Below are positions 10,770 to 17,895 of a stretch of 64,000 nt of DNA, piece by piece. Origin of the DNA: Escherichia phage Ec_Makalu_001; sequence record MN894885.1, one strand, 5' to 3'. How positions within the stretch are numbered: position 1 is the first letter of the stretch; every line of letters starts with the position of its first letter. Below the pieces are notes generated by a model. It worked only from the letters and a program-made list of their open reading frames with translations, was not told the DNA's origin and ran no database searches. A program made the position numbers and the translations under genes.

Positions 10770-11701
10770 TGTTTGATTTAAATGACTTTAACGAACAAGC
10801 CGCTAACCTTGACTTTCAGCGATCTAACTTATTCAGCGTGGCATTTGCCACCACTCCAAGTAATAAGACACAAGCGATCCTAGAAAGTATGGGCGGTGCG
10901 GTATATGATATTATACCAAATGCATTAAATGACTATTTCGGGATTACTCGTGGTGATTATACTGACGCATTAACAAATCTTGCTGTACAGGGTGTTAGGC
11001 GTGCTGTTGATTCATCCGGTGTCAAAAAGTATCTTTTAGGTGCAATGTCATCCCGCGTAGTTCAATCTCTTCTGGGGCAATTTGATGTTGGTACATATGC
11101 GCTTGACTGGTTCAATATGGCATATAAGACAAGCGGTCTTCTGGTGTATGCTGTTAAGGTTCCAGAAAACAGATTGAATTATGAAATAGACCGTAACCAC
11201 AATGCGCCAAACATTCGAATTACCGGACGTGATTTTGATCCGCTTGTATTGAGCTTTAGAATGGACTCTAGCGCATCAAACTATAGAGCAATGCAGGATT
11301 GGGTTAACTCAGTAGAAGACCCAGTTACAGGGCTTCGTGCGCTTCCTGTTGACGTTGAAGCAGATATTCAGGTTAACTTACATAACCGAATGGGAGTTCC
11401 TCACACGATCATGATGTTTAATGGTTGTGTTCCTGTTGGTGTGAGTGCACCGGAATTAACCTATGAAAATAACAACGAAATTACAACATTCGATGTTACT
11501 TTTGCGTATAGGACTATGCAAACTGGTGCTGTAGGAGAGCAAGCCGCGCGAGAATGGATTGAGGATAAGGCAATAAACGCAATAACAAACACTTTCGGCA
11601 ACAATTTACTTGATAGTGGGTTATCTGCTGCTGGTAATGCTTTATCGCGTCTAAATGGCGTCGGTGGGCGTGTGGTGAATACTGTCACTAACTGGTTCTG
11701 A
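10769..11701 (+). CDS. 54: baseplate tail tube initiator gp54
   Basis: 310 aa; ATGA overlap with gene 48; T4 synteny; followed by terminator hairpin. Confidence 0.7.
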   Translation: MFDLNDFNEQAANLDFQRSNLFSVAFATTPSNKTQAILESMGGAVYDIIPNALNDYFGITRGDYTDALTNLAVQGVRRAVDSSGVKKYLLGAMSSRVVQSLLGQFDVGTYALDWFNMAYKTSGLLVYAVKVPENRLNYEIDRNHNAPNIRITGRDFDPLVLSFRMDSSASNYRAMQDWVNSVEDPVTGLRALPVDVEADIQVNLHNRMGVPHTIMMFNGCVPVGVSAPELTYENNNEITTFDVTFAYRTMQTGAVGEQAAREWIEDKAINAITNTFGNNLLDSGLSAAGNALSRLNGVGGRVVNTVTNWF

Positions 11702-11708
11702 TAAGCGA

Positions 11709-11737
11709 AAGGCGGGGACAATCACCCGCCTTTTTAT
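11709..11737. terminator. rho-independent terminator hairpin between convergent gene 54 and lipoprotein gene
   Basis: GGCGGG-loop-CCCGCC followed by T-run. Confidence 0.6.
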
Positions 11738-12219
11738 TTTGCTAAATCATTGCAATATTTTAGTGCCTTAGTTTGAAACTCTGCGCTGTTAAGTTCTTCA
11801 TAACGGTCATAATCACCGTTTAATGCTGCCTTTCTTGCTTCTTGTTCTATCTGCATGTCAGACATGATAATACAACGATCCCGCGCTTTCATCTTCTCAA
11901 GTTGTATAGACTCTTCTTGTTGCTTGCGCAATTCTTCTTGATGCTTCTTTTCTTCTCGTGCTTTCTCTTCCCGCGCTTCTTTGATTGCATCTTTGAACAT
12001 CTGCGTTTGTGGTGCTAAACCAACTTTAACGCGATCCACGTCTCGACGTTCCATTTTAGAAATAAAGCATGATTCGATCTGGTCATCGCTTGCATATGCT
12101 GCTTTACATTCACGAAGCAAGAAAACCGGATCTGATTTAGCATTCATCATAGCTTCCATGTTAGTACAACCAGTAAGCATGAATGCAGCCGCAAGACCAA
12201 TCAGTTTAATCATTTTCAT
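11734..12219 (-). CDS. putative lipoprotein (signal peptide with lipobox LTGC)
   Basis: 161 aa; N-terminus MKMIKLIGLAAAFMLTGC; charged coiled-coil-like remainder. Confidence 0.5.
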   Translation of the reverse strand: MKMIKLIGLAAAFMLTGCTNMEAMMNAKSDPVFLLRECKAAYASDDQIESCFISKMERRDVDRVKVGLAPQTQMFKDAIKEAREEKAREEKKHQEELRKQQEESIQLEKMKARDRCIIMSDMQIEQEARKAALNGDYDRYEELNSAEFQTKALKYCNDLAK

Positions 12220-13040
12220 TTAGTCACCTCACCGAAAATTGTAAATTGTCTACGATTCTCATCGCCGAAAGATTCTACTACGTCGTTTACCTTGATGCAA
12301 GTCCCGCGCGGTAAAATTACTTCACATTCGCAAGGATTCCATGCAATAGACCCAACAACAAAACCTTTATGATCTTTTACGTCAATTACCCATGATACAT
12401 TACAAGAATGTTGCATCTTTCCGGTCATTGATTCATATCGATTCTCACAATAAAGGCTAGTGCTGTTTGAAAGCCATCCTCCAAAGATGATCGGTGTCAT
12501 GCTGGTCGATACAAAGTTTTTAAAGGTAAATTCCTTATCTTCAATAATACGCTCTATTGTCTGAATGTCAAGATGTTGACCGCGATAAAGAGTACCGTTT
12601 AACTTTTCGGTTTTATCCATGACACAATCCATCAAATCGACAATCTCTGATATCTCATCGGTCATGTCTTCTTCCCCTAAGAGAGCACCATTTACCCATT
12701 CGTATTGTTCAGACACATAATCGCAGATTGCATTATATTCTGCTGGGGTTATGTTGTTATGTTTGTAATGTTTGAATACATTATCTCCAAAATCTTCGGA
12801 ATGTACTTCATACATCACATTAATGATTTTCTTGACAAATCCATAATCTTGCGTTTCTCGCTCAAGGAAACGGATAACTTTCACGTAATCATCAAAGTTA
12901 ATATGATCGCTGATCATTTCAGTGATCATGTAACCATTAATCCCCTCAATGCCATATGTTTCGATGTAATTATCCATACGTTCCATCATTGATTCGCGTG
13001 ATTCTTCTGAAAGGCGAAAATCCTGTAATTTCTTGAACAT
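12216..13040 (-). CDS. ADP-ribosyltransferase domain protein (Alt/Mod-like, short form)
   Basis: 274 aa; R-S-E triad pattern shared with adjacent Alt: LYRG, FVSTS, CECEVILPRG. Confidence 0.6.
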   Translation of the reverse strand: MFKKLQDFRLSEESRESMMERMDNYIETYGIEGINGYMITEMISDHINFDDYVKVIRFLERETQDYGFVKKIINVMYEVHSEDFGDNVFKHYKHNNITPAEYNAICDYVSEQYEWVNGALLGEEDMTDEISEIVDLMDCVMDKTEKLNGTLYRGQHLDIQTIERIIEDKEFTFKNFVSTSMTPIIFGGWLSNSTSLYCENRYESMTGKMQHSCNVSWVIDVKDHKGFVVGSIAWNPCECEVILPRGTCIKVNDVVESFGDENRRQFTIFGEVTK

Positions 13041-13059
13041 TTTAAACCTCCCATATAAC

Positions 13060-13093
13060 AGAAAACGGGGCTAGTATAAAACTAGTCCCCGTT
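13060..13093 (-). terminator. rho-independent terminator after alt
   Basis: Stem AACGGGGCTAGT / ACTAGTCCCCGTT with T-run on minus strand. Confidence 0.5.
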
Positions 13094-13119
13094 TGAGTCA
13101 ACCATTATTTCTTAAAAAA

Positions 13120-15171
13120 TTACATTTTAAATTTATCCGGCATAGCGTCTACAGACACAAGATCAGCGATAAGCTGACGTAGAGTTGCCTTATCTGCTTT
13201 CTTACGTTCGGTTTTAGCTTCGGTAATGAAGCTGGAGAAAGACAGGTCAGAAGCAGGTTTAACAACACCTTCACGGATGAATGCATCACCGTCCGCGATC
13301 ATCTCACCAGATTCTTGTAATGCTGCCAGTTCATTTTTGTTCATAATATGTGCCTCGATGTAATAAGTTTCTTGTGAATCCGTCGATGCCGTAGCACGAG
13401 TTACCGTATCAAAGGATAACACAACACCGCGAGGAAGTAAAATCTCGCATTCTTTGTAAGCAAATGCTTTGTTACCTACTGGCAATACAGGGATGTTTTC
13501 CGCGCCAGCAATGGAGAAAGCAACATTAGCGCCACCTTCACCGCGAGATCCAGCCATAGAATCAACACCAGCAACGGCACTAGCCACGTTTGCATTCCAT
13601 CCACCAAAAATATTAGGTGCAAGGGAAGTGCTCACATAGTTTTTAAAGTAAAACGCTTTTTGCTTACGTGCAGTTTCCCACATTTGAGAACGGAAGTCCA
13701 TACCACGATACAAGATAGTACCTGGATCAAGTTTAACACCATAGTTAGCAAATGCGTTATCCAGTGCATCACACATCTTGACCAATTCTTCTGGGTCTGC
13801 GATGCCTTCAAACTCTTCCAGCTTACGGTCGGTTAGGAAGTTGTTCATATTGATGTATGCTGCATCCGCATATTCGCTCAACACAAAACCTTCCGCGCCA
13901 GGCAGATCAAGATCAATATCTGCCATCATTTCACCCATGTTGCTAGCAATTGCTTCAAACATACCGGAAGCAACATTACGCAGGGCATCGGTTTTAATCT
14001 GCGTGATGTGACTACGCAGCATTTCAGCTTTTACATCTGCTGGCATAGACTGGTCGACGCGATCCATTGCTAGGGCGGTGATCTTGTTTTCAAACACTTC
14101 TTCATTCATGATTTCTTTTAAGCGTTTGATTGATGCTGCGATAACTTCCGCAGACAACGGATCATATTGATCCTGAACTTTTACCAGTTCGCTTACTGCG
14201 TATTTTGCATCGGCTTCGCTTTCAAAAATAGTACGCATGAAACCATAGCGAGTGATAATATCACTTGTCCAGTCATTCAGAGAACGGGCGGTTGAACGTT
14301 CTAAGGCTTGACGGTCAATCAGAGTATTAAACTGTTTCTTAGGTTCTGCTTCGGTGATATCTTCTTCCGGTTTAAGATTAATTTTTTCTGGATGATTCAC
14401 ATAGTCGCTGTTATAGGTCGCTTGAGTTTTCAGCATTTCTTCTTTAGTCAAACGAGATTTAGCCGCTACGCGTTGTTCTGCTTCCGCGTTTCGTTCTTCT
14501 TCTGACACAAGACTAGCCGCATACGCCTCATCTTTAGTCAGAGATTCACCAGTAGCCTTAGATACCCAGCGATCACCTAAATCACTTTCTACTTTAGTGA
14601 ACAGGGATTCATCGAGTTTAATCCCTTTAATCTTATCAATCGCCATCCCGCGACGTTTGACAACAACTAAAGCGATCTTTTTGCTGGTCATTACTTCCTG
14701 CTGGAATACTTCAAACTTCGGTGTACGACGCACCAAACGCTCTATAACGCGCTTAACCAGTTCGGTCTTACCTTTCATGCGGGATACGTTAAAACGGAAC
14801 ATAACAGCGTCTAATTGCGCTTTACGGGCTGTTTCCATAACCACATCAAAAGCACTTGACATAACTGCAATTGGGTTATCTCCTAGACCATTTTTAAGCT
14901 GTACAATACGACCGCTTTTGTTCATTTCGCACAGTACAACATGTGCGGTCTTGTCACCCATACGAATGATTTTAGGTGTTTTGTTGGTGAAGTTACAAAG
15001 ACGGACAATCACATCTTTATCGCGTGTCTGTACTGCAAAAAGCTGTTTAGGATTCTGCTTAGGCTTTAAGCACTGTACCGGAGCAATACTGCCAAAGTTT
15101 TCTTCCTCTTCCGTCAACAGCCATTTCTCGAAAGATTCAATCATTAGATCGTCGATTTCTAAGTTAAACAT
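13120..15171 (-). CDS. alt: Alt ADP-ribosyltransferase (packaged, RNA polymerase-modifying)
   Basis: 683 aa (T4 Alt 682 aa); motifs YRG / YVSTSL / ECEILLPRG; T4 synteny. Confidence 0.85.
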   Translation of the reverse strand: MFNLEIDDLMIESFEKWLLTEEEENFGSIAPVQCLKPKQNPKQLFAVQTRDKDVIVRLCNFTNKTPKIIRMGDKTAHVVLCEMNKSGRIVQLKNGLGDNPIAVMSSAFDVVMETARKAQLDAVMFRFNVSRMKGKTELVKRVIERLVRRTPKFEVFQQEVMTSKKIALVVVKRRGMAIDKIKGIKLDESLFTKVESDLGDRWVSKATGESLTKDEAYAASLVSEEERNAEAEQRVAAKSRLTKEEMLKTQATYNSDYVNHPEKINLKPEEDITEAEPKKQFNTLIDRQALERSTARSLNDWTSDIITRYGFMRTIFESEADAKYAVSELVKVQDQYDPLSAEVIAASIKRLKEIMNEEVFENKITALAMDRVDQSMPADVKAEMLRSHITQIKTDALRNVASGMFEAIASNMGEMMADIDLDLPGAEGFVLSEYADAAYINMNNFLTDRKLEEFEGIADPEELVKMCDALDNAFANYGVKLDPGTILYRGMDFRSQMWETARKQKAFYFKNYVSTSLAPNIFGGWNANVASAVAGVDSMAGSRGEGGANVAFSIAGAENIPVLPVGNKAFAYKECEILLPRGVVLSFDTVTRATASTDSQETYYIEAHIMNKNELAALQESGEMIADGDAFIREGVVKPASDLSFSSFITEAKTERKKADKATLRQLIADLVSVDAMPDKFKM

Positions 15172-15210
15172 TTTATATCCTCTAGTTGATAACCTATAAA
15201 CCTATATTTA

Positions 15211-15233
15211 TGAAAAAGGGGCTTAACGCCCCC
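15211..15233 (-). terminator. rho-independent terminator (GGGGC-TTAAC-GCCCC)
   Basis: Hairpin followed by T-run on minus strand; same hairpin core recurs at ~19234-19255. Confidence 0.5.
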
Positions 15234-15238
15234 ATTTA

Positions 15239-15451
15239 TTATAATGCACCATCGAGCAATTGCTCTAAGGTGTATCCTGAATAGTCTTTTTCAATCAGGA
15301 TATATTTTCCTACTCGTTTAATACAACCGCGCATTTCAACGTATTCTGCGTAGTTGATGGTGCGAGTTGTTCCATCTTCTAGTAAAGCAGTACCGATTTC
15401 GTTAATGCGGTCATAAGTTACGTCGGTAATGATGATTTCGATGTTAGCCAT
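15239..15451 (-). CDS. hypothetical protein (70 aa)
   Basis: ORF with RBS and upstream early promoter-like motif; hairpin terminator downstream at ~15211-15233. Confidence 0.4.
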   Translation of the reverse strand: MANIEIIITDVTYDRINEIGTALLEDGTTRTINYAEYVEMRGCIKRVGKYILIEKDYSGYTLEQLLDGAL

Positions 15452-15522
15452 TTGATACTCCTTAGTAGTTCGTTTCGGTATGGGTGTATTATGATATACA
15501 CCCTCTGTTATGTCAACAACTT

Positions 15523-15702
15523 TTAGAACATTTTTGAAATTAATTCTGCTTTGATTTCGCAGAGAACATCTAAAGATTTCTCGTCACCCGCTTTTGCTGC
15601 TTCTGCTTGCATTTTTGAAATGGCTTCAATGTCAGTGCAATTATAAGCCGCTTGAACTTTAGCGATTGCGATGATTGCCGATTCGATGGTTAAGTGTTTC
15701 AT
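15523..15702 (-). CDS. hypothetical protein (59 aa)
   Basis: Manual ORF below track cutoff; ATG 15700-15702 preceded by GGAGAATCA RBS and promoter 15735-15763. Confidence 0.35.
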   Translation of the reverse strand: MKHLTIESAIIAIAKVQAAYNCTDIEAISKMQAEAAKAGDEKSLDVLCEIKAELISKMF

Positions 15703-15770: not shown

Positions 15771-16289
15771 TTAGTTATTTTTTAATTGCTCATCTTGCAA
15801 TAGGGCAATCACATGCTGGCGATGTTCTTCCGATTGAGGAACACCGAAAAAGTTTGTTTTGTAGAAATACTCTAATCGGTCTTCTCGTGTGCTCTCTTCC
15901 ATCATGATCGCGGGTAGTCCGAGATTTCGGAAACGTCGCTTTTCTGCTGGCGTAAAATCACTGTAATACAACATAGAATCATCATTACCAGCAATGCTAA
16001 ACTCATCCTTCATAAAGGAGAATATTGCGTTTAAACGCTGTTTACCGTCCACGATTTCGATCTCATAGCGAGAGCCATCATCAATCTTAGCCATTGCGAT
16101 AGCACCAACCGGAAAATCATTAATCAGGTTTTCGATAAACATACGTTTGTTTTCGGTGTCCCATACCAAAGGACGCTGATAATCTGGGTTCATGTTGATA
16201 TAGCCATCTTCTAACCACGCCTCATAAACAGAGATGACAAAGTTTTTAGTATTGGTATAGTAACGGCGTTTAGGCGTTAAACGGTTCAT
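15771..16289 (-). CDS. DUF262 / ParB-like (GmrSD N-terminal type) domain protein
   Basis: Motifs NPDYQRPLVW and IVDGKQRLNAI match the DUF262 signature (xQRxxxW ... DGQQR); start chosen at internal ATG 16287-16289 with AGGAG RBS, overlapping upstream stop. Confidence 0.55.
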   Translation of the reverse strand: MNRLTPKRRYYTNTKNFVISVYEAWLEDGYINMNPDYQRPLVWDTENKRMFIENLINDFPVGAIAMAKIDDGSRYEIEIVDGKQRLNAIFSFMKDEFSIAGNDDSMLYYSDFTPAEKRRFRNLGLPAIMMEESTREDRLEYFYKTNFFGVPQSEEHRQHVIALLQDEQLKNN

Positions 16290-16290
16290 G

Positions 16291-16623
16291 TTATAGTCTC
16301 CTGAATGGATCATCACGTAAATCAATATCTTTTAAGAACTCATCCCATGAATGGCGGATATTGTTCTTAATTCTCCAGATAAGCGCAGGGATTGAACGCT
16401 CTCCCATCTGGAAGTAAGGATCATATGATCCATATGCCCAATATGCTACTACAATTCCACAATCGGCGCAATAATATTCTATTTCACTTGCTGGCGACCA
16501 AAGTCCATCAATATGATCACGGATCTTGCTTTCGATGTTATGGCTATGGCAATCAGGGCAACGGATGCAATGACCTTGTTTATCGTAATTTGACGTTAGC
16601 GAATACTTAAACAATCTCATCAT
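16291..16623 (-). CDS. zinc-ribbon protein (CxxC...CxxC)
   Basis: 110 aa; CIRCPDCHSH ... CADCG; ATGA overlap with upstream gene. Confidence 0.45.
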   Translation of the reverse strand: MMRLFKYSLTSNYDKQGHCIRCPDCHSHNIESKIRDHIDGLWSPASEIEYYCADCGIVVAYWAYGSYDPYFQMGERSIPALIWRIKNNIRHSWDEFLKDIDLRDDPFRRL

Positions 16624-17336
16624 AGATCCTTATTGGCTTCAAATACTGCCTTTGCGAATCCTCGCGGGGTAAGTGACCTGATAGTCTTTGTTCTGGTTCC
16701 TTTCCCGCCTAGCTTAGAATGCTGTTTACTGTACCCTTTATTAATCTGCAACGGTTTCTTTTCTGGCATTATAAAGCCTTGTCCGGTCCATAAGCAAGTC
16801 TTTTTCGGGTACATATCACGGGCGGCAATATACTCAGGAAACGTAGGATGCTTATCATCTTCCGGCAAATAACCGCCATATTCCCACGGATGGAACATGT
16901 AATCAGGCTTACGCCACATGCTAGAGATAACGCTTACAGGATTCTCTATCATGTAGGGAACTCCTAGCCATTCACCCAAATAAGCGGTTATTTTAGCTGC
17001 CCTTACATCATGAACTTGAATTAATGGTCCTTGTTCTCGTTTCTTTCGTTCAAAGTGCGCAGCGCCACTAACAGCTAAATTGGTGCATGGTGGGAATGCA
17101 AAGATAATATCCGGTTTCCCCCATTCAAGGTCCATTGCTCTTTCCAGCCAATTTAAATCAATCCATGTGTTTACATATGTAATGTTTGGATGTTCAAATC
17201 GGGTATTATATTTTTTGTATGTACCGTGGTCGCCATCGTCAGCATTAAAGCAGATCACCTTATGACCTGCTTTAGCCCATTCTAACCCCATTATCCCCGA
17301 TCCGTCAAAGTTGCAGAATATTAATTTTTGTTTCAT
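16620..17336 (-). CDS. putative DNA (cytosine-5) methyltransferase-like protein (short)
   Basis: 238 aa; motif I-like FCNFDGSG, motif IV-like FAFPPCTNLAVSG (Pro-Cys), motif VI-like MIENP; no clear motif VIII/X. Confidence 0.4.
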   Translation of the reverse strand: MKQKLIFCNFDGSGIMGLEWAKAGHKVICFNADDGDHGTYKKYNTRFEHPNITYVNTWIDLNWLERAMDLEWGKPDIIFAFPPCTNLAVSGAAHFERKKREQGPLIQVHDVRAAKITAYLGEWLGVPYMIENPVSVISSMWRKPDYMFHPWEYGGYLPEDDKHPTFPEYIAARDMYPKKTCLWTGQGFIMPEKKPLQINKGYSKQHSKLGGKGTRTKTIRSLTPRGFAKAVFEANKDL

Positions 17337-17866: not shown

Positions 17867-17895
17867 ATTGTAGGGGAGTTATCCTCCCCTGTCAA
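17867..17895 (-). promoter_or_regulatory. early sigma70-like promoter, palindromic spacer (TTGACA-GGGGAGGATAACTCCCC-TACAAT); drives 5-gene cassette
   Basis: Minus-strand -35/-10 with 17-bp inverted-repeat spacer, A-rich UP region. Confidence 0.55.

Follow-up and report, generated by a model that had tools for sequence, protein, structure and literature searches.

Two adjacent ADP-ribosyltransferase genes

The locus described here lies in a 64,000-nucleotide (nt) stretch of DNA from Escherichia phage Ec_Makalu_001 (MN894885.1); the whole stretch is called the window below, and coordinates refer to it unless another genome is named. It comprises alt, which encodes a full-length Alt-type ADP-ribosyltransferase (ART) of 683 amino acids (aa), and downstream of it a short Alt-like gene of 274 aa, both on the minus strand (Table 1). 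Gene 48 and gene 54 on the plus strand are followed, on the minus strand, by a 161-aa open reading frame (ORF), the 274-aa ORF, alt and a series of small early-strand ORFs. Positions 11500-15600 were matched over their full length by 58 phage records, all of them Krischvirus, i.e., RB49-like "pseudo-T-even" coliphages. The best match was Escherichia phage Ec_Makalu_003 (99.5% identity), while RB49 showed 97.2%. Relatives beyond cultured phages were metagenomic lineages or contigs (L004, L005, L006, L009, L010, L011 and L012); L008 is the RB49 genome.

The gene pair is already annotated and published, and the core of the observation is therefore known. The long gene is annotated as alt in RB49, and RefSeq describes RB49p183 (NP_891754.1) as 'ADP-ribosyltransferase; similar to C-terminal part of T4 Alt'. 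Nolan et al. (2006) regarded RB49ORF183c, 44RRORF188c and T4 alt.-1/alt.-2 as apparent paralogous duplications of the alt next to them (PMC1524935). The present analysis adds that the short gene is intact and under constraint, that it belongs to an old, separate clade, that the 'terminator' in front of it appears to be a conserved promoter-terminator cassette, that alt has a late-promoter layout like that of T4, and that a Mod-type enzyme is encoded elsewhere in the genome.

Catalytic motifs, domain content and fold

Both proteins exceeded the gathering score of PF03496 (ADPrib_exo_Tox; 23.4), the short protein with 58.1 bits (E = 1e-15) and Alt with 36.2 bits across residues 426-610 (E = 5e-9). 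Comparison with PHROGs covered the short protein over its full length with phrog_15144, 'ADP-ribosyltransferase' (E = 2.5e-196), and Alt end to end with phrog_802, 'Alt-like' (E = 1e-179). An initial annotation, made from the sequence alone, had described two neighbouring ART genes sharing an R-S-E catalytic pattern (YRG / STS / E-x-E). The ORFs and PF03496 upheld the first point, and the motifs were located at Y152-R153-G154, S178-T-S180 and E238-C-E240-VILPRG in the short protein, and at Y488-R489-G490, S514-T-S516 and E574-C-E576-ILLPRG in Alt. They were near-invariant in the family alignment of 63 sequences from which catalytic-residue conservation was read: the R, the first S and the T of S-T-S, and both E were invariant, while the last S was conserved in at least 90%.

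Outside the catalytic core the two proteins differed considerably. BLASTP aligned the short protein with the window Alt at 37% identity across 109 aa of the core (E = 1e-16), and it was colinear with positions 331-602 of phrog_802, the Alt profile. It lacked the approximately 330 N-terminal residues of Alt (the N-terminal third to half), and also a C-terminal tail of approximately 85 residues. This tail (YDGD...ETG ... [ML]PxKF) was absent from seven short-clade proteins and present in the window Alt, T4 Alt and two further Alt-family proteins, P0007 and P0008, that are described below. The initial proposal of an Alt paralogue that keeps the catalytic core without the N-terminal region agreed with profile colinearity, BLASTP, fold and tree, but had overlooked the loss of the tail. 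Alignment with the T4 enzymes showed 31% identity to the core of T4 Alt and no similarity to ModA or ModB.

The window Alt matched T4 Alt end to end with 26% identity across 695 aa (E = 6e-60). Its architecture, for which residues 1-340 were modelled with AlphaFold2 (AF2), comprised an N-terminal alpha/beta domain (~30-250), a disordered linker (255-340), a helical region followed by the ART core (~340-610), and a C-terminal tail ending MPDKFKM. PF26846 (Tevenvirinae_ADPRT, the N-terminal Alt domain) was present in the L004 relative, which was 46% identical to the window Alt; together with the full cover of phrog_802, this predicts the N-terminal Alt domain for the 683-aa protein, while the 274-aa protein, aligning to phrog_802 331-602 alone, does not have it.

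An AF2 model of the short protein based on the 63-sequence alignment (mean pLDDT 92.1, pTM 0.89) comprised helical residues 1-143 and then a beta core, which is a predicted C3/VIP2-like ART fold. Foldseek matched this model in PDB with C3bot, Vis, CDTa, Certhrax, iota-Ia and C2-I (probability 1.0, E = 1e-10 to 1e-9). Among predicted viral structures, the first match was its own orthologue, followed by short or split Alt-like proteins of T4-like phages of Acinetobacter, Aeromonas and Citrobacter. By sequence, PDB returned marginal matches only (Tre1, E = 0.06; SpvB; Vis), and no solved Alt-family structure was found. NCBIfam and PADLOC gave no match for Alt, the short ART or the lipoprotein encoded downstream.

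Comparison of the short gene with its RB49 counterpart revealed 24 synonymous and three non-synonymous differences, and the ratio of non-synonymous to synonymous substitution rates (dN/dS) was 0.027; the corresponding value was 0.12 against a metagenomic relative of 83% identity. For alt, dN/dS was 0.038 against RB49. The short gene is therefore constrained to a similar degree as alt (0.027 vs. 0.038), which argues that it is not a decaying remnant. As far as sequences and models indicate, it is probably an intact and constrained R-S-E enzyme of the Alt/VIP2 clade, and both genes are probably functional.

Three clusters were formed by residues that never varied within the short clade, while 55 full-length Alts had another residue or showed variation at these positions. 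One followed S-T-S (W189, S193-T-S195, C198, E199, N200, Y202, K208, N214 and W217), another preceded E-x-E (G226, V229, W234 and N235) and the third lay in the last strands, so that these clade-specific residues were concentrated at 189-217 and 226-235. The first two clusters correspond to the PN and ARTT loops, which select the substrate in C3-like enzymes. This would fit a conserved substrate preference of the short enzyme's own, probably unlike Alt's, and is compatible with the suggestion of the initial annotation that it may act on a host protein other than RNA polymerase alpha. In C3, the Q-x-E variant of the ARTT motif goes with asparagine. The E-x-E form was found also in Alt, ModA and ModB of T4, and since T4 Alt and the Mod enzymes modify arginine (PMC2988021), the short enzyme is predicted to be arginine-specific.

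A predicted promoter-terminator cassette between the genes

The spacer between alt and the short gene is 79 nt long and reads, on the minus strand, TTTTTTAAGAAATAATGG TTGACT CAAACGGGGACTAGTTT TATACT AGCCCCGTTTTCTGTTATATGGGAGGTTTAAA ATG; the AT-rich stretch TTTTTTAAGAAATAATGG lies directly upstream of TTGACT. A sigma70-type promoter, recognized through its match to 10 of 12 consensus positions and its 17-nt spacer, overlaps a hairpin in which AAACGGGG-A-CTAGT pairs with ACTAG-CCCCGTTT. The outer stem (AAACGGGG/CCCCGTTT) is separated by a one-base bulge from the inner stem (CTAGT/ACTAG), and a T-rich stretch comes next. A stretch of 85 nt, consisting of the spacer and the end of alt, folded with a minimum free energy of -20.9 kcal/mol (z = -2.1). 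This hairpin was not reported by a simple terminator scan, probably because of the bulge in its stem, and was found by folding. A purine-rich stretch occupied the Shine-Dalgarno (SD) position in all seven aligned related spacers, as GGGAGG or a variant of it. A scan of the window for the late-promoter consensus TATAAATA found no perfect copy before the short gene.

The cassette was kept in seven of eight lineages, including those where the short protein was only 45-48% identical. Covariation was assessed with seven sequences: 95.6% of cells were paired, the covariation score was reached by none of the shuffles (0/500), and pairing dropped to 33-54% when the partner strand was slid by 1-3 columns. 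Two stem pairs displayed compensatory double substitutions (C:G to T:A or A:T, and T:A to C:G). For so few sequences this evidence is moderate, but it is consistent with a conserved stem. The exception was L006 (1504-1529), where the cassette was missing and 26 nt, including a TTGACA remnant, separated an upstream alt-like ORF, cut at the contig end, from a short gene whose product was 44% identical.

A genetic element of this kind has been defined in RB49 and phi1 as the PeSL (promoter-early stem-loop), in which a near-consensus sigma70 promoter with AT-rich sequence upstream carries a Gn-loop-Cn stem-loop that lies over the -10 or between it and the -35, followed by the SD and start codon (PMC2839356; PMC4122927). 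By sequence and predicted structure, the spacer before the short gene belongs to this class. Promoter and terminator activity was demonstrated with lacZ fusions for other RB49/phi1 copies, i.e., PeSL193/192, 206/205 and 211/210 (PMC2839356), and the copy before the short gene was not mentioned in the two PeSL papers cited above. The initial annotation had placed a terminator in this spacer and supposed that the short gene was expressed independently. The hairpin and T-run supported the former, while the overlapping promoter had been missed; the latter gains strength from a predicted PeSL cassette and SD directly before the short gene that persist in most lineages.

Approximately 20 similar cassettes preceded small early genes on the minus strand of the window, and that of the short ART gene had the strongest hairpin among the TTGAC-17-TAnnnT sites. 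Other PeSL sites on this strand were located at 17895, 18139, 21189, 21423, 22569, 22963, 30820, 31045, 31326, 33869, 57972, 58195, 58475 and 59493, among others. They typically consisted of TTGACA, a G-rich/C-rich hairpin and a TATAAT-like -10, then ...GGAGAATCAAAATG. Two types of hairpin were seen: one, GGGGA..TCCCC, lies between the two promoter elements, while the other, GGGAGTAGTAAGATACTCCC, holds the -10 in its loop.

Sequence upstream of alt

Alt is preceded by a hairpin that insulates it from the early unit upstream, and then by CATAAATA, which differs by one mismatch from the consensus late promoter. There were five perfect copies of TATAAATA in the window and none before either ART gene. 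The same layout, a hairpin and then TATAAATA, precedes alt in T4 and in L007, a T-even-like 166-kb metagenomic genome, while the late motif was AATAAATA in L004 and CATAAATA in RB49. A hairpin with [T/C/A]ATAAATA was thus kept before alt in T4, L007, L004, RB49 and the window, and the promoter scan identified no sigma70-like site between the hairpin and alt. It was noted previously that a terminator upstream of alt is kept in 5/6 T4-like genomes (PMC1524935), and single deviations from the late consensus are documented among T4 promoters, most commonly at -13 (A for T, 9/50 sites; PMC2988020).

Three further ORFs were observed upstream on the minus strand. A 70-aa ORF (15239-15451) has a cassette of its own at 15488-15516 (minus), with TTGACA-17-CATAAT and a hairpin GGGTGTAT..ATACACCC over the -10. 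A 184-aa ORF (15771-16325) corresponds to a hypothetical protein of RB49, annotated there with a later start, and the RB49 counterpart of a 238-aa ORF (16620-17336) is annotated as a DNA methyltransferase.

The downstream gene for a predicted lipoprotein

The 161-aa ORF and the short ART gene share 4 nt (ATGA), the start codon of the former overlapping the stop codon of the latter, and the ORF is probably the second gene of a short-ART early operon. An ORF of 159-174 aa followed the short ART in all six contigs that extend past its 3' end (L004, L005, L006, L009, L011 and L012). For the window gene, dN/dS was 0.11; phrog_16112, to which it belongs, has no named function. The predicted lipoprotein begins MKMIKLIGLAAAFMLTGC..., and its middle part is coiled-coil-like, with many E, K and R residues. 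There was no match in Pfam, and its homologues were confined to phages and lacked a domain or useful name. A weak match of the N-terminus to Cor superinfection-exclusion proteins (E = 0.008) was the sole hint of a function. The hairpin between this gene and gene 54 is likely to mark the end of the operon.

Table 1. Position of predicted features in the window.
Feature	Coordinates	Strand	Basis
Short Alt-like ADP-ribosyltransferase, 274 aa; orthologue of RB49p183/ORF183c	12216-13040	-	PF03496, phrog_15144, AF2, Foldseek, dN/dS, tree
alt, full-length Alt-type ADP-ribosyltransferase, 683 aa	13120-15171	-	phrog_802, PF03496, T4 Alt match, RB49 annotation
PeSL-type cassette between alt and short gene	13057-13110	-	Promoter scan, fold, conservation, covariation
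-35 element TTGACT	13101-13096	-	Promoter scan
-10 element TATACT	13078-13073	-	17-nt spacer from -35
Hairpin: G4/C4 core stem, inner 5-bp stem, one-base bulge	13094-13063	-	Folding
T-rich tail after hairpin	13065-13057	-	Sequence
Shine-Dalgarno GGGAGG, 6 nt before ATG of short gene	13047-13052	-	Read from sequence
Late-promoter-like CATAAATA	15205-15212	-	Sequence; 33 nt before alt start codon
Terminator hairpin GGGGGCGTTAAGCCCC with T-run, upstream of alt	15217-15233	-	Terminator scan
Predicted lipoprotein gene, 161 aa; lipobox LTGC	11734-12219	-	ORF list; phrog_16112
Bidirectional terminator hairpin between gene 54 (+) and lipoprotein gene (-)	11707-11734	both	Terminator scan: 10-bp stem, 6 GC pairs, T-run

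Origin of the short gene

Full-length, close homologues of the short protein among cultured phages were confined to the 58 Krischvirus records, where protein identity was at least 97.8% and the frame was always intact. A large protein database added six metagenomic lineages, with proteins of 271-288 aa and 44-83% identity. Where the metagenomic contigs could be read, they shared a common neighbourhood, consisting of alt (whole or as a fragment), a spacer, the short ART, the 159-174-aa ORF, and gene 54 on the opposite strand; L010 ended at the short gene. Between lineages, the short proteins were 44-48% identical and the neighbouring Alts 41-46%; given this similar divergence, the pair appears to have been inherited together.

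A neighbour-joining tree was estimated from the catalytic domain of 67 sequences with 200 bootstraps. Seven short proteins formed a clade with 100% support, as did the three resident Alts, while the node uniting the short clade with the resident Alts received only 18.5%. On these data the duplication is placed before the divergence of these phages, and the tree does not settle its source within the Alt family. A recent, local duplication of the resident alt was rejected on account of the 18.5% joint support, and because the short protein scored 87 bits against T4 Alt but 67 bits against its own neighbour. For a shared ancestry with the second alt copy found in T-even-like phages (P0007, P0009-P0016) there was no support (0% bootstrap).

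These second copies were seen in various states. In L007 (3086-7248), behind an alt of 697 aa, lies a second copy in two pieces, an N-terminal ORF of 273 aa and a catalytic ORF of 415 aa (P0007), and the latter grouped with a full-length lineage of 684-686 aa (P0009-P0016), apart from the short clade. Full-length Alts of this second lineage are abundant, P0014 alone representing 772 member sequences. In T4, the annotation treats alt.-1 and alt.-2 as what an old duplication has left of the first part of alt. It would seem that many T-even relatives carry two full Alt paralogues, and that T4 retains only alt.-1 and alt.-2. Both P0007 and the 316-aa P0008 retain the C-terminal MPxKF tail.

Mod-type enzymes

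Similarity between the short protein and the Mod enzymes was not detected; T4 ModA produced E = 8.3 in BLASTP, ModB produced no match at E up to 10, and tblastn of both against the whole window returned chance-level matches only. A Mod orthologue does occur in RB49, outside the region corresponding to the window. This is RB49p014 (167 aa; L008 8917-9420), situated next to srd, as in T4, and annotated modB, in which LYRG, MSFT and ERE are intact. RB49p014 is shorter than T4 ModA (200 aa) and ModB (207 aa), and nearer to ModB (33% vs. 23% identity). The possibility that the short enzyme is a Mod family member, or replaces missing Mod genes, was rejected, given the lack of similarity and the presence of RB49p014 at srd. 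Judging from gene content, Krischviruses carry Alt, a short Alt-derived enzyme and one Mod, while T4 carries Alt, ModA and ModB.

Discussion

The best explanation of the locus as a whole, and one that we consider probable, is that it encodes two functional, arginine-specific mono-ADP-ribosyltransferases of the Alt/VIP2 clade, both of the E-x-E type, which are expressed at different times. Alt would be transcribed late from CATAAATA behind its terminator hairpin, as in T4, and by analogy with T4 its product would presumably enter the head and be injected along with the DNA. Late transcripts from alt would meet the full G4/C4 hairpin and T-run, and stop. Host sigma70 RNA polymerase, on the other hand, would start from TTGACT-17-TATACT approximately 7 nt past the -10, near 13066. 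This start lies inside the 3' arm of the hairpin, and so the new RNA could not form the terminator and would read on until the bidirectional terminator at 11707-11734, thereby covering the short ART and lipoprotein genes. The short enzyme would then be made early inside the cell, combining a timing like that of T4 ModA/ModB with descent from Alt, and would ADP-ribosylate one or more host proteins on arginine. Its PN and ARTT loops would probably confer a substrate set unlike that of Alt. The genes, their motifs, fold, selection and paralogy, and the promoter and hairpin sequences with their conservation were observed here; we infer that the enzymes are active, when they are expressed, that the short one stays out of the virion, and on which substrates they act.

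Several points weigh against this reading. The absence of the N-terminal domain suggests, without proving, that the short enzyme is not packaged, and the T4 head review is silent on what targets Alt to the capsid. The promoter before the short gene is known as a consensus match, the late promoter of the window alt departs from the consensus at its first base, and in L006 co-transcription of the short gene with alt is possible. Differences in the loops are read as substrate specificity by analogy with C3-like toxins. With a Mod-type early ART already present in RB49, there is no vacant Mod role that the short enzyme would have to take over. Finally, nothing relevant was found in the literature on Krischvirus ART experiments or virion proteomes, which offered no expression, virion-proteome or enzymatic data for the short gene.

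A second possibility is that the short enzyme is another late, head-packaged effector, read through from the alt late promoter (and possibly also made early), which is injected and acts with Alt in the first seconds; this we regard as unlikely. The strong hairpin, T-run and near-consensus sigma70 promoter kept before the short gene in 7/8 lineages argue against it, as does the want of any late-promoter motif there. In addition, the short protein has neither the N-terminal domain nor the conserved C-terminal MPxKF tail, which is kept in the full-length Alts of T4, the window, L004 and L007, and also in P0007 and P0008. It is true that the position of the gene between alt and a baseplate gene is linked in the literature to late synthesis and packaging of Alt-family ARTs (PMC5512222, PMC9503650), and that the description of PeSL hairpins, as terminators or attenuators, leaves room for some read-through (PMC2839356). 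The arrangement in L006, where only 26 nt and no cassette follow the alt-like ORF, would also fit with read-through.

T4 Alt is reported to modify MazF. The short enzyme might similarly be an early counter-defence protein that inactivates a host toxin or defence protein, or a non-canonical transferase that attaches NAD-capped RNA like ModB, perhaps acting with the lipoprotein; this is less likely still. T4 ModB attaches NAD-capped RNA to proteins, which is known as RNAylation (PMC9503650; PMC10468400), and this indicates that R-S-E phage ARTs can use such RNA, but the short protein has no sequence similarity to ModB. The ART-lipoprotein operon structure was kept in every relative whose contig extends past the gene; however, the lipoprotein is without a recognizable domain and would sit outside the cytoplasm. 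Similarly, while the substrate loops are clade-specific, neither PADLOC nor NCBIfam matched any of the three proteins, and no specific defence system could be tied to the enzyme.

That the short gene is a functionless, decaying remnant of an alt duplication, as T4 alt.-1/alt.-2 at the same position are annotated to be, and as the split second copies of other T4-like phages might suggest (L007; the 'split RNA polymerase ADP-ribosylase' of BFVD), is very improbable given its dN/dS of 0.03-0.12, a frame that is unbroken in 58 Krischvirus genomes as well as in six metagenomic lineages, the most distant with 44% identity, a full set of conserved catalytic residues, a confident fold, and its own conserved promoter and SD.

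A further reading of the locus can be put forward tentatively, although we lean against it. The short enzyme would be an early Alt derivative with a host substrate unlike those of Alt and Mod (e.g., a defence or stress protein, or proteins modified by NAD-capped RNA), forming a conserved two-gene early module with the lipoprotein, and ADP-ribosylation would be split among three enzymes in a manner unlike T4.

Phages take over the transcription and translation of their host with ADP-ribosyltransferases, and these enzymes have received renewed attention since the attachment of RNA by T4 ModB. Krischviruses are common in E. coli phage collections, including those assembled for therapy. Identification of what the short enzyme modifies would show how an injected effector, once duplicated, became an early, intracellular one. 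The analysis of this pair adds confirmation and regulatory detail, rather than a discovery.

Comparison with known systems

The closest known counterpart is RB49 ORF183c/RB49p183 (phrog_15144), which is the same gene with 98.9% protein identity (three amino acid changes), occupying the same place between alt and ORF182/gene 54. The spacer in front of the short gene has the same order of promoter, stem-loop and SD as the PeSLs of RB49 and phi1 (Arbiol et al. 2010; Comeau et al. 2014). It differs from most copies in the window in having a longer, bulged stem, and in being kept across lineages whose flanking proteins are approximately 45% identical.

T4 Alt belongs to the internal proteins of the head, and its target is Arg265 in one alpha subunit of RNA polymerase (PMC2988021); both packaging and the Arg265 target are known for T4 Alt only. 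The short protein shares with it the R-S-E core and the helical pre-domain, with 31% identity to residues 413-593. However, it lacks the N-terminal domain (~330 aa), linker and C-terminal tail, has a predicted sigma70 rather than a late promoter, and belongs to a separate clade. T4 ModA and ModB, which are early ARTs and are not packaged, resemble the short protein in their small size, R-S-E motifs and a predicted early promoter of the host type, but differ in sequence and genome position.

Extra alt-derived ORFs between alt and gene 54 are also known from 44RR (ORF187c/188c), T4 (alt.-1/alt.-2) and, as split copies, from Acinetobacter phage ZZ1 and L007. These tandem duplicates are independent lineages: T4 keeps N-terminal remnants only, L007 keeps both halves, and Krischvirus keeps only a compact catalytic half. 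The best structural matches of the short protein, i.e., C3, Vis, CDTa/iota-Ia and VIP2-like toxins, have the same arrangement of R, S-T-S and E-x-E despite a sequence identity of only 15-20%. Unlike the phage enzyme, these bacterial toxins are secreted and act on eukaryotic targets, and C3 has Q-x-E in place of E-x-E and modifies asparagine.

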